NCBI GenBank assembly: GCA_020341815.1
Contig: CP070837.1
Span: forward strand, 8,034-72,033
Source: Candidatus Omnitrophota bacterium
Lineage (GTDB): Bacteria; Omnitrophota; Gorgyraeia; JAFGHF01
Reading direction: 5' to 3'
Length of the DNA: 64,000 nt
Both the position numbers and the translations under genes were made by a program. The notes under the pieces are model-generated. The model saw only the letters and a list, made by a program, of their open reading frames with translations. It had not been told where the DNA came from and made no database searches. This document shows, piece by piece, positions 48,701-61,173 of the stretch. Every line of letters begins with the position of its first letter. Within the stretch, counting starts at the first letter, position 1.

Positions 48701-48824
48701 TTAGTCGCTCGTATCTAGTCGCTAGTCGCTTGTATTTAATATCTCGTTAAAAACTCTTTATTTAATTATTAAATCTTTTATTTTTCTATTTTTACTAGAT
48801 ACTAAATACTATATACTAGCGACT
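48701..48824. mobile_element. TAGTCGCT-type TIR element, empty copy X1
   Basis: tagtcgctcgtatctagtcgctagtcgcttgtat ... actagatactaaatactatatactagcgact inverted repeats around an AT-rich 60-bp core. Confidence 0.6.
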
Positions 48825-48829
48825 TATAA

Positions 48830-48904
48830 TGGTGGGCCCACAAGGATTCGAACCTTGAACCAACAGATTATGAGTCTGCTGCTCTGCCGTTGAGCTATGA
48901 GCCC
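48830..48904 (-). tRNA. tRNA-Met (CAU anticodon; elongator or Ile2-lysidine type not resolved)
   Basis: GGGCTCATAGCTCAACGG...CTCATAA...GGTTCGAATCC...CCA. Confidence 0.75.
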
Positions 48905-48920
48905 TGTGTCTGTAACTCTC

Positions 48921-49664
48921 TTAGGATTGAATTTTCCAGTTTTTTATGTAATGCCCTTTATTATCTATACTTTGCCAGTCGTCTCCCAAGGAAATATTTG
49001 AATGATTTTCGAGCAATATTTTAGGTCTTAATGATTTACCCATTCCTTCCAGAACCTTAAATTCACAACCTTCCACATCAATTTTGATTAAATCCGGGCG
49101 TATCTTTTCTTTTTCAATAAAACTATCGAGCCTCGTTACCCTGACCTCTGTTTTCATAGAATTTTTTAGAGAATTATGGGGTGCTAAAGTTGCGCTATAA
49201 AGATGCTCTAAAGGTTCTTCGTAAAACTCTCCAACTCCGTCATAATCAGAAACAGCTACCTCAAGACACTGAATATTAAAATTGTTAAGCATACAGTTAG
49301 CGCGGAGTTTTTTTATAACTCTTGGCACAGGTTCGAAGGCATATACAGAAGCTTTAGGATTTACTGCTTTGGCAATAAGCGAAAAAATACCTGTATTTGC
49401 CCCAATGTCTAAAATAACATCTGCTTCCTGACACATCTCAGCCCAAACCTTCATCTCTTTTGAAAGTCCCCGCCAAAATAGTTCATTCTCACAAAGATAT
49501 CCAAAATGATGGATATAAAAATGGTTCTTTTTTATTTTTACTTTGAATTTCCCTTTAAAATGAAGGTGTCTATAAACAAATTCGGGAAGTAGATGCCTCA
49601 AGATTTTAAACATTATTCTCCAATTATTTTTATTTCGAATTCTTATTATCTGGTGGGCCGCCAA
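48921..49664 (-). CDS. FkbM-family SAM-dependent methyltransferase
   Basis: ILDIGANTGIFSLI motif I; 247 aa. Confidence 0.7.
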   Translation of the reverse strand: MAAHQIIRIRNKNNWRIMFKILRHLLPEFVYRHLHFKGKFKVKIKKNHFYIHHFGYLCENELFWRGLSKEMKVWAEMCQEADVILDIGANTGIFSLIAKAVNPKASVYAFEPVPRVIKKLRANCMLNNFNIQCLEVAVSDYDGVGEFYEEPLEHLYSATLAPHNSLKNSMKTEVRVTRLDSFIEKEKIRPDLIKIDVEGCEFKVLEGMGKSLRPKILLENHSNISLGDDWQSIDNKGHYIKNWKIQS

Positions 49665-49716
49665 ATTGCCTGGCGAGCCTCACCATCTCGCCCGCCATTT
49701 TTGATGGCGAGGTGGA

Positions 49717-59303: not shown

Positions 59304-59314
59304 CGGCGTATACC

Positions 59315-59635
59315 CTATTTTTTCTTGATGTAGGAAATTGTGTTTTTCTGAAATTTAATCCTGGTGTTGTCATCAACACGCAGCGTCACGGTATCCTCAT
59401 CCACATTAACCACTGTGCCGTGGATACCGCCGTTTGTAACCACCTCGTCATTTTTGCCCAGCTTAGAAAGCATCTGACGATGCTCCTTTTGCTGCTTTTG
59501 CTGCGGTCGGATAAGCAAAAAGTAGAAGATGACGAAGATTAAAACTATGGGAAAAAGTCCAGCCAGGGGATTTGGCGCAGGAGCGCCGGGGACAGCTTGC
59601 GGCGGCTGGCTCATTGCATAGGCAAGATTATTCAT
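59315..59635 (-). CDS. yajC: preprotein translocase subunit YajC
   Basis: [19 protein letters not shown]; 106 aa. Confidence 0.85.
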
Positions 59636-60740
59636 TTACAACCTCCTTTTTCAGCTCTAAAAACTTATTCTTTTGGATTGCCTCTCTGATTCTTTGCATA
59701 AGCATAACATAAAAATAGACATTATGCAACGAAACTAATCTTACTCCCAGTATCTCACCGGTATTAATCAGGTGGCGGATATAGGCACGGGTATAATTAT
59801 TTTTGCAGGCAAAGCACCGGCAACCTTCTTCAATGGGCTTAAAATCTCTTGCGTAGGGTGCATTTCTTAAAACCAGCTTTCCCGATTTCGTAAAGGCGCT
59901 GCCGTTTCTGGCATGACGGGTGGGCATGACGCAATCAAACATATCTACGCCCATCTCGACCGCCTTAAAGATATCAAGCGGTGTTCCTAAGCCCATTGCA
60001 TAACGCGGCTTCTCCTTCGGCAAAAATTGCAATGCGTGCTCAAGCACTTCGAATTTTATATTATCCGGCTCACCCACGCTTATCCCGCCCAATGCATAAC
60101 CGGGGAAGTCAATCTCCAGAAGCTCTTCAGCCGCCTGTTTGCGCAAATCCGGATACGTACCGCCCTGGACAATACCGAAAAGCAATCGCCCGTCACTTTT
60201 ATTCTGTCTATTAAGAAAAGTCTCCTTCGAGCGGCGGGCCCAAAGGCTTGTAAACTTAAGCGATTCCCGGGCATAATCGCGCTCAGCCGGATAAGGCACG
60301 CACTCATCCAGAGGCATCAGGATATCGCTGCCCAAATCCAGCTGAATCCCGATTATATCCTCCGGGGTCAAAAAATGCCTTGAGCCGTCGATATGCGATT
60401 GAAACTCTACGCCTTTCTGGGTAATCTTTCTCAATACCGCCAGGCTGAATACCTGAAATCCGCCGCTATCGGTAAGTATAGGGCCGCTCCAGCCCATAAA
60501 CTTATGCAACCCGCCGGCCTCTCTGATAATTTCTCTGCCGGGGCGCAGATAAAGATGATAGGCATTGCCTAAAATTATCTGGGTCTTGCAATCTGAGAGC
60601 TCCTGAGGAGTTAAGGTCTTTACCGTTGCCTGGGTGCCTACCGGCATAAACACCGGTGTCTTAACTACGCCGTGGGCGGTTTTAAGAAGACCCGTTCTGG
60701 CTCCAGACGCTTTATCCTGATGAGTAACTGTAAAAGTCAT
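59628..60740 (-). CDS. tgt: queuine tRNA-ribosyltransferase
   Basis: TPVFMPVGT...DSGGFQ...CxCxxC zinc site. Confidence 0.9.
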
Positions 60741-60744
60741 TCTA

Positions 60745-61173
60745 TAGTCGCTAGTCGCTTGTATCTAGTATCTAGTTTAAAGCTTCTTAATCATAGTCAT
60801 TAGCATTCTGCTTTCATAATTGAGCTCTTGTATAATTTCATCCTTATCTTTGTCATTTAAAAAAGAGTTATCTTTAGCAATAATAAATTGAGTTTCTAAT
60901 TCTGCGCAAGAACCCAATGCTATATATAAGAATTGCTTATACTCTCTATTTGATCTTCTTATAAAACCTTCGGCTATGTTTGAAGGTATAGAAACTGCTG
61001 ATCTTCTCATTTGTGAAACTATTCCATATAACTCTTCTTTAGGAAAAGATTGAGTTATCCTATAAACCTTATTAACAATCTCTATTCCTTTTTGCCAAAT
61101 TCTTAAATCTTTAAAATCTTTTATTGCTTCCATGTCTTTTACTGGATACTAGCGACTAGATACTAGCGACTAG
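60745..61173. mobile_element. TAGTCGCT-type TIR element X3 carrying a four-helix-bundle (IVS-type) gene
   Basis: tagtcgctagtcgcttgtatctagtatctag at the left and gatactagcgactagatactagcgactag at the right; the right end contains the queA stop codon. Confidence 0.6.
60777..61133 (-). CDS. four-helix-bundle protein (TIGR02436, 23S rRNA intervening-sequence protein family)
   Basis: DLRIWQK...SIPSNIAEG...ALGSCAELETQF motifs; 118 aa. Confidence 0.75.
   Translation of the reverse strand: MEAIKDFKDLRIWQKGIEIVNKVYRITQSFPKEELYGIVSQMRRSAVSIPSNIAEGFIRRSNREYKQFLYIALGSCAELETQFIIAKDNSFLNDKDKDEIIQELNYESRMLMTMIKKL

Follow-up and report, generated by a model that had tools for sequence, protein, structure and literature searches.

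Inverted heptamer arrays around a four-helix-bundle gene in an Omnitrophota genome: candidate intervening-sequence-type cassettes at operon and tRNA-gene junctions

What kind of element places runs of a 7-nt repeat at the very edges of housekeeping genes, and why should such runs bracket a gene? The question is raised by a 64,000-nt stretch of the genome of Candidatus Omnitrophota bacterium (GenBank assembly GCA_020341815.1, contig CP070837.1, positions 8,034 to 72,033 of the forward strand), here called the window and numbered from its first nucleotide. It contains three sites with inverted arrays of the 7-nt units TAGTCGC and TAGTATC, namely X1 (48701-48826), X2 (55280-55446) and X3 (60741-61172), the last of which encloses a gene for a four-helix-bundle (4HB) protein of the family PF05635/TIGR02436. 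From comparative sequence analysis, we consider it on balance probable that the three sites are copies of a selfish cassette of the intervening-sequence (IVS) type, in which a PF05635 gene is bracketed by inverted heptamer arrays.

Period-7 arrays were located by a lag scan over the whole window, and 16/21 served as the threshold for array flanks in the comparison loci. Synteny was assessed on contigs L171, L174 and L182-L184, together with a lineage filled between queA and tgt (L002-L007 and L174) and an empty counterpart (L091); a site is called filled when the cassette is present and empty when it is absent. The cross-phylum set comprised 80 loci from species-representative genomes, encoding proteins 55-67% identical to the X3 protein and belonging to Pirellulales, Phycisphaerae, Sedimentisphaerales, Atribacterota, Omnitrophota, Dehalococcoidales, Nitrospirota, Clostridia and others. 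In a separate set, 80 metagenomic tgt loci were checked for a 4HB gene upstream of tgt. Most comparison loci are contigs of metagenome-assembled genomes (MAGs) or metagenomes, whose host labels can be wrong.

Anatomy and insertion status of the three sites

A repeat search linked the three sites through shared direct-repeat families (D2, D6, D8 and D19), and recovered inverted arms within each site (36 nt at 81% in X1, 33 nt at 76% in X2 and 32 nt at 81% in X3). This bears out the view, expressed in a preliminary description of the window, that the three copies form one inverted-repeat family. Allowing up to two mismatches, TAGTCGCTAGT occurs 22 times in the window, with 17 of these matches inside X1, X2 and X3, compared with 9.8 +/- 2.8 matches in shuffled sequences, and none of 100 shuffles reached 22. 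The lag scan detected period-7 arrays only at the three sites and in one solo array (37921-37952), and lags other than 7 gave at most one match each at equal threshold. The minimum free energy (MFE) z-scores were -3.64 for X3, whose full transcript closes with its arms, -5.75 for X1 and -4.78 for X2. Rfam at gathering thresholds recognised RNase P RNA and tRNAs but nothing else in the window, neither a known RNA family over X1-X3 nor rRNA; the three copies are flanked by protein or tRNA genes and are not part of a 23S rRNA helix. Nothing in the elements or beside them was convincing as an ordinary promoter or as an intrinsic terminator, the scans giving a single weak promoter-like match (9/12) in the 3' arm of X3.

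The sites are distributed over a run of genes comprising queA, tgt, yajC, secDF and recJ on the minus strand, followed by rpmB in convergent orientation, with tRNA-Met and a zinc-ribbon gene of the CT398-like type beyond it. Features are on the minus strand unless stated otherwise. X3 occupies the junction between queA (61170-62177) and tgt (59628-60740), two genes that overlap or abut in relatives. Its 5' arm (61141-61172) reads TAGTCGC TAGTATC TAGTCGC TAGTATC CAGT, and the first TAG (61170-61172) is at the same time the stop codon of queA. A spacer, AAAAGAC (61134-61140), leads to the ATG of the intact 4HB gene (60777-61133). The 3' arm (60741-60776), ACTAGAT ACTAGAT ACAAGCG ACTAGCG ACTA followed by TAGA, ends directly at the tgt ATG (60738-60740).

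X2 (167 nt) and X1 (126 nt) are short, non-coding and hairpin-forming with terminal inverted repeats, and thus share with MITEs (miniature inverted-repeat transposable elements) the traits of size, structure and multiple copies; eleven further gene-less inverted pairs were counted in other loci of the comparison. X2 occupies the junction between recJ (55436-57181) and rpmB (L28; 55045-55314, plus strand). Its 5' arm (55397-55446), TCAGTCGT TAGTATC TAGTCGC TCGTCGC TAGTATC TTGTATT TAGTAAA, supplies the final two codons of recJ and its stop codon (55436-55438), such that the native C-terminus ISSN* is swapped for ISR*. The core (55355-55396) consists of AAAGATTTAAGAATT joined to AAGCTTTTAA. The 3' arm (55280-55354) has about ten degenerate units (ACGAAAT ACTATAT and so on), and its plus strand carries rpmB on for 11 codons to a new stop, with KVQKPSRSYPVDSIQ in place of the native end KVQKI. 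X1 begins 4 nt beyond the 3' end of tRNA-Met (48830-48904) with a 5' arm (48791-48826) reading TAAGTCGC TAGTATA TAGTATT TAGTATC TAGTAAA. It continues with a core (48748-48790) of ORF (open reading frame)-end remnants with the same deletion junction as X2, and ends in a 3' arm (48701-48747), ACGAGAT ATTAAAT ACAAGCG ACTAGCG ACTAGAT ACGAGCG ACTAA, which abuts, at a distance of 1 nt, the ATG (48698-48700) of the CT398-like zinc-ribbon gene. The cassettes therefore lie at the very edges of genes in tight operons (queA|tgt, recJ|rpmB, tRNA-Met|next gene), where they swap a few terminal codons and provide new stop codons. The supply of stop codons to rpmB, recJ and queA had been noticed before and is confirmed in each case. 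The accompanying statement that every element sits exactly at gene 3' ends holds for X2 and X3 but not for X1, which lies between a tRNA 3' end and a start codon and touches no protein-gene 3' end.

The cores of X1 and X2 reveal their origin. Aligned with X3 in gene orientation, both retain about 40 nt of the 5' end of the ORF and about 12 nt of its 3' end, and about 300 nt are missing. The 5' remnant, AAAGATTTAAGAATT, encodes the conserved KDLRI, and AAGCTTTTAA is the 3' remnant. The longest exact match to the ORF is 15 nt in the X2 core, at the ORF 5' end (0/500 shuffles reach it), and 12 nt in the X1 core (3/500). X1 and X2 are internal-deletion derivatives of gene-carrying cassettes and not empty vehicles, and copies decay by internal deletion to hairpins of about 125-165 nt. 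This contradicts the preliminary description where it took the short copies to be empty and the core to have later been expanded to hold the gene; its idea of the arms as the vehicle of the 4HB gene has survived, as the arms are the conserved bracket of one family across the three sites. X1 and X2 can be aligned with each other across the deletion junction (94 columns, about 80% identity). Because they share this junction as well as characters absent from X3, they probably descend from one short progenitor, unless the same microhomology deletion happened twice. Full-length cassettes at the X1 and X2 sites were not found in relatives, all five lineages examined being empty there.

The X3 ORF is the sole PF05635-type gene in the window. 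Its 118-aa product matches PF05635 (E 2.5e-39, 134.2 bits, cut-off 33.8) and TIGR02436 (130.6 bits, cut-off 24). The structure model (pLDDT 90.9) has four helices in an up-down bundle like that of solved members, and its best matches in the PDB are 2GSC (XCC0516, a pentamer; sequence match E 1.5e-23) and 2RLD, at a TM-score of about 0.72. 2GSC, 2RLD and Avd are all pentamers. An assignment as the Avd protein of a diversity-generating retroelement was rejected, as the scores were below the cut-offs (NF033474, 21.9 bits against 80; PF22296, 27.5 against 40) and the neighbours are queA and tgt; neither a reverse transcriptase nor a template/variable repeat is present in or beside the cassettes. 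The protein contains no recognised catalytic motif, PADLOC gave no match to a defence system, and nothing usable on a relationship to HEPN proteins was found in the literature.

Compared with its ortholog in L002, the 4HB gene has a dN/dS of 0.071 at a dS of 0.84. From this strong purifying selection, we conclude that the 4HB protein is functional. The dS of the flanking genes is 1.08-1.82, and the age of the cassette is roughly that of the split between the window and L002 lineages, or a little less. The arms have changed even less, with 3 differences in 74 nt against a pS of 0.51 in the ORF (P = 1.6e-18 versus synonymous sites); they are more conserved than the whole ORF (P = 0.004) and than the flanks (P = 1.8e-5). 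Since mismatched arm positions are conserved as well, the unit sequences are constrained beyond pairing alone.

Comparison of filled and empty sites in relatives, a check already proposed in the preliminary description, indicates that all three sites are insertions. Contig L171 (RecJ 76% identical) is fully syntenic and empty at X1, X2 and X3: queA and tgt overlap (ATGA), the stop codons of recJ and rpmB overlap by 4 nt, and 11 nt separate tRNA-Met from the next start codon. L174, L182, L183 and L184 are empty at X2, and L183 and L184 at X3 too. None of the 80 metagenomic tgt loci has a 4HB gene upstream of tgt. A second lineage (L002-L007, L174), with flanks of 75-80% DNA identity to the window, carries the cassette at the same queA|tgt site.

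Within this second lineage, the cassette is present or absent between otherwise identical strains. From the tgt ATG onwards, empty L091 and filled L174 are identical for 1421 nt. At the queA end, L091 departs from its closest filled relatives, L004 and L007, at seven of the last 12 nt, at nt 55 and at only four positions in the next ~700 nt, and the polymorphic segment takes in the final four codons of queA. In the empty allele, TTAATTTTGTGA is followed by AA and ATG; in the filled allele, CTTATAATATAG is followed by the cassette, TAAA and ATG. In other empty lineages queA ends in sequences of the type ATTTT(A/G)T(A/G)A, and in both filled lineages in ATAAT(A/C)TAG. Because the empty allele has a different 12-nt end, it cannot have arisen from the filled one by simple deletion. 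The pattern resembles the replacement of an allele or a co-conversion tract of short length, and may reflect either gain or loss. No target-site duplication was found when the junctions were searched for target-site structure.

Recurrence of the bracketed gene across phyla

Inverted heptamer arrays surround the 4HB gene in almost all of the 80 cross-phylum loci. The best lag-7 score in the 90-nt flanks of the gene was on average 15.0 upstream and 14.4 downstream, as compared to 8.9 in random segments and about 9 for the other lags between 4 and 11. At the 16/21 threshold, 45% and 41% of 4HB flanks contained an array, against 6.5% and 4.8% at other gene boundaries in these loci (odds ratio 11.6, p = 4e-13). 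An unbiased alignment of every array by rotation, in which the downstream ones were reverse-complemented, gave the unit logo T-[C/A]-G-T-N-N-N, in which G reaches 96% and T 89% (4.83 bits, versus 2.19 in phase-shuffled controls). Most arms have four to five units (49/65 at the 5' side, 41/58 at the 3' side); the 3' array begins at a median of 3 nt past the stop codon and the 5' array ends at a median of 27 nt before the ATG. The preliminary description had neither the 7-nt period as a defining feature nor the generality across phyla, both of which are established here.

Unit type is correlated with protein similarity (Mantel r 0.44, p <= 0.0005) and less so with host group (r 0.19), and the same unit order recurs in different phyla, for example in L087 and L089. 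As unit type thus tracks the protein more than the host, and unit orders cross phyla, we conclude that gene and arms travel together. Arms of the TAGTATA type flank a 69%-identical copy in a pilin operon, and distant members on plasmids of Nostoc, Geminocystis and Riemerella are bracketed by the inverted heptamers GGGAACA, GGGAAAA, GGTTCAA and AGTCAGG. The gene for the crystallised XCC0516 protein of Xanthomonas is listed in the supplementary table of Rehm et al. 2015 (PMC4692102) with an array of four GGGAATC units that overlaps its annotated start, at a distance of 6 nt from bccP. In our limited literature search, we found no paper describing heptamer-array brackets around free-standing PF05635 genes, which is absence of evidence only.

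Some cassettes are larger than X3. A second gene within them was considered and rejected: L020 has 460 nt between arm and gene with no credible ORF, and in L017 the neighbours are V-ATPase genes only. The L020 cassette (2000-2880, Pirellulales) lies between hypF and hypC, with the HypF C-terminus read from its 5' arm, and the hypF|hypC site is filled in several Pirellulales species.

Arrays also occur apart from 4HB genes. Contigs L011-L184 (907 kb) contain 302 period-7 arrays, 151 of which are within 150 nt of a 4HB gene and 125 of which are solo; 13 gene-less inverted pairs resemble X1 and X2 (e.g. L147 617-725, L149 800-904 and L033 2856-2937). Period-7 arrays are also found inside the tgt coding sequence of many metagenomic relatives (L093 2510-2592, an inverted pair; L096 2520-2564; L108 2514-2557; and further in L098, L102, L103, L114, L121, L142, L146 and L155), where they encode a hypervariable loop between RRSKE.F and LLFGIVQG; tgt of the window has no array there. 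The solo array of the window (37921-37952, minus strand) consists of non-inverted CAGTTAA/CAGTTGA units. It begins where the gene at 37955-38785 has its stop codon, and a GC-rich hairpin and T-run (TCGGGGGAAGCCCCGATTTTT) come after it. Its unit is in the xAGTxxx register and is similar to the TAACTGA repeat of Beggiatoaceae in reverse complement.

Role of the arms, known systems and rival explanations

In the IVS-type reading that we favour, the full form would be a promoter-less 4HB gene with the structure 5' (T[A/C]GTNNN)n, ORF, (NNNAC[T/G]A)n 3', with four to five units in each arm. The arms would pair in the operon transcript into an imperfect stem of about 30 bp that keeps the host flanks adjacent, and this would make the insertion cheap for the host. 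By analogy with the 23S rRNA IVS, the stem would probably be cut by RNase III. With the upstream stop and downstream start codons placed at the stem base, translational coupling could survive, and the repeated units would tolerate slippage in pairing. The frozen unit sequence and the number of units suggest that the units are read one by one by a pentameric 4HB protein, most economically the product of the cassette itself. A length of four to five units would fit an RNase III substrate of about 28-35 bp, as in the IVS of Coxiella, or one unit per pentamer subunit. Three-frame termination of translation was rejected as a function of the arms: it would work for TAG and TGA units, whereas the units of many lineages (GAGTATC, GCGTATT) contain no stop codons.

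This interpretation agrees with what is known of 23S rRNA IVS, which contain an S23p/PF05635 ORF in Coxiella burnetii and Leptospira (PMC4990558). The IVS of Coxiella has a terminal stem of 28 bp, which RNase III cuts, and its ORF is preceded by three GACAGAT units in tandem (PMC4990558); the link to 23S rRNA IVS drawn in the preliminary description was apt. The elements of the window resemble IVS in gene family, in a terminal stem of about 28-30 bp (the 32-nt arms of X3 are 81% complementary and close a stem around the ORF), in tandem heptamers by the ORF, in decay by internal deletion in some strains and in insertion where a hairpin leaves the host RNA functional. Unlike IVS, they are located in an mRNA operon or at a tRNA-gene junction rather than in helix 9, 25 or 45, both arms of the cassette are heptamer arrays, and the gene is under purifying selection instead of decaying. 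They are best filed as IVS-type cassettes of mRNA operons and tRNA junctions, with heptamer-array arms and MITE-like derivatives.

Several observations weigh against this reading. Neither a transposase nor a recombinase, integrase or nuclease was found in or next to the cassettes, and the filled and empty junctions show a replaced 12-nt patch without target-site duplication or flanking direct repeats. G-U and A-C mismatches between the arms are equally frequent (42 vs 40) and give no signature of selection for RNA pairing as such; the order of units is only weakly mirrored (mean z 0.6, 48 loci), and complementarity within the stems is only about 81%. In loci that had not been picked for the presence of a 4HB gene, most period-7 arrays lack such a gene in their vicinity, and arrays are far more numerous than 4HB genes. 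Set against the dS of the flanks, the value of 0.84 would also fit a single old insertion followed by plain vertical descent, and ordinary homologous recombination could have spread the filled/empty polymorphism. As the cross-phylum loci are MAGs, their host labels may carry binning errors.

Some of these observations would suit arms that act as DNA, which we regard as possible though rather doubtful. The arms would then be subterminal sites, as in Ac/Ds, Tn7 and Mu, to which the 4HB pentamer itself or else a recombinase encoded elsewhere would bind; the cassette and its short derivatives would move as DNA by transposition or homing, and the RNA hairpin would be incidental. The lack of a G-U over A-C excess and the weak mirroring of unit order are in line with this, as are the freezing of the whole unit rather than of pairing alone, the covariation of unit type with protein clade, and four to five units per arm together with a protein whose solved relatives are pentamers. 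The deletion junction common to X1 and X2 suggests that a short form spread in trans, and the 12-nt patch replaced beside the left end together with the cassette resembles a co-conversion tract. However, the missing target-site duplication and enzymes count against a DNA element just as they do above, the 4HB protein has no catalytic motif and matches no defence or mobile-element model, and a 7-bp period is awkward for contacts on one face of B-DNA.

An ordinary host gene that does not move at all is unlikely, given the gutted copies and the insertion status of the sites. It would be accompanied by slippage repeats or by hairpins with a regulatory role (stability, attenuation or autoregulation), and presence and absence would result from deletion and homologous recombination. 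The site shared by the window and the L002 lineage, a dS of the order of that of the flanks and the strong purifying selection on the protein are all consistent with such a gene; heptamer arrays are common without a 4HB gene, and heptamers are among the over-represented simple repeats in bacteria (PMC4692102). Against this, there are three independent insertions within 12.5 kb, at junctions that in relatives overlap or are 0-13 nt wide, the different 12-nt end of the empty allele excludes simple deletion from the filled one, unit types and orders are equal in different phyla (L087 and L089), and the relics carry remnants of the ORF. Chance low-complexity sequence without biological meaning, the refutation foreseen in the preliminary description, deserves practically no credence: short units in an AT-rich region would speak for it, but no shuffle reached the motif count, the signal is specific to lag 7, the arms are conserved across lineages and the pattern recurs in the 80 independent loci.

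Other known elements share single traits with the cassettes. Correia/NEMIS elements of Neisseria are cut by RNase III, and Rickettsia palindromic elements are translated in frame. Like both, X1 and X2 are hairpins of 125-165 nt with terminal inverted repeats, placed at gene ends and derived from a longer element. As with these elements, X1 and X2 would be co-transcribed with their neighbours, and related arrays occur in frame in tgt of relatives. In contrast to the Neisseria and Rickettsia elements, X1 and X2 show no TA or other target duplication, their parent encodes a 4HB protein and no transposase, and the arms are tandem 7-nt units instead of a unique terminal inverted repeat; the first two points also led us to reject X1 and X2 as true MITEs. 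With REP/REPIN elements, which are mobilised by RAYT transposases (PMC3116915), they share short inverted pairs dispersed at gene ends and far outnumbering the coding partner, but there is no RAYT-type gene and the arms are tandem heptamers instead of a single palindrome. Integron gene cassettes were also rejected, as repeats flank the gene on both sides, and no integrase lies close to any of the copies, which are dispersed over housekeeping operons. The X3 protein has the same fold as Avd (4DWL, 8UB7), and its relatives are pentameric; Avd functions in a ribonucleoprotein with nucleic acid (PMC10053308).

Cyanobacterial STRR sequences, reportedly described by Mazel in 1990, are a further group of short repeats to be considered here. 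Heptamer arrays have been described with the units GGGAATC in Xanthomonas and GGGGA(T/C)T in Nostoc (PMC4692102) and TAACTGA in Beggiatoaceae (PMC4679880). Rehm et al. (PMC4692102) discussed G-quadruplexes and MacGregor (PMC4679880) suggested translational regulation; in X. campestris, 186 arrays and 70 convergent (inverted) pairs were counted, and no function was assigned to them (PMC4692102). As in our loci, these arrays are intergenic, mostly of about four units and often at gene ends, and one Xanthomonas array overlaps the annotated start of XCC0516. Unlike them, the arrays described here bracket a PF05635 gene and remain after its deletion; in the searched portions of text and supplements of PMC4692102 and PMC4679880, no link of heptamer arrays to PF05635 genes was found.

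A broader proposal is more tentative still. PF05635 proteins and period-7 arrays might form one system, in which the pentamer reads its own array and drives or protects a hairpin cassette in any RNA, including rRNA (the classic IVS), mRNA operons, tRNA junctions and in-frame protein loops. Much of the heptamer excess in bacteria would then be the footprint of this system, with the cyanobacterial STRR, the Xanthomonas GGGAATC and possibly the Beggiatoa TAACTGA repeats among the examples.

The bracketed cassette links three old puzzles, namely the role of S23p/4HB proteins, the origin and spread of 23S IVS, and the excess of heptamers in intergenic DNA; the bracket architecture may account for the origin of many unexplained 7-base repeat arrays. 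If the IVS-type interpretation is true, RNase III should cut in the arms, the pentamer should bind (unit)5, and gene-less inverted heptamer pairs should be relics. For genome annotation, cassettes rewrite the C-termini and stop codons of recJ, rpmB and queA and remove the room upstream of the starts of tgt and the CT398-like gene.

Other repeat families in the window

A second family of hairpins, about 100 nt long and unrelated to X1-X3, is present at 26377-26483, 32873-32984, 46923-47035 and 47317-47420, with 17-nt terminal inverted repeats CCCGAACCAAAATACT...AGTATTTTGGTTCGGG. One copy is a 97-nt insertion that replaces a 4-nt hairpin loop of the RNase P RNA gene, an IVS-like position in a structural RNA, and another copy abuts tRNA-Pro. 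A small family at 2007-2052, 3538-3583, 7385-7430 and 8148-8193, of which at least three of the four copies end in a palindrome around CTCAAGATAA(A/T)(T/C)CTTGAG, may represent shared terminators. Two direct repeats complete the picture: one of 237 nt (96% identity) at 12335-12571 and 15744-15980, 3.4 kb apart, and one of 56 nt (84% identity) at 15702-15757 and 25981-26036, which ends in GATGGCGTCCCCGG.

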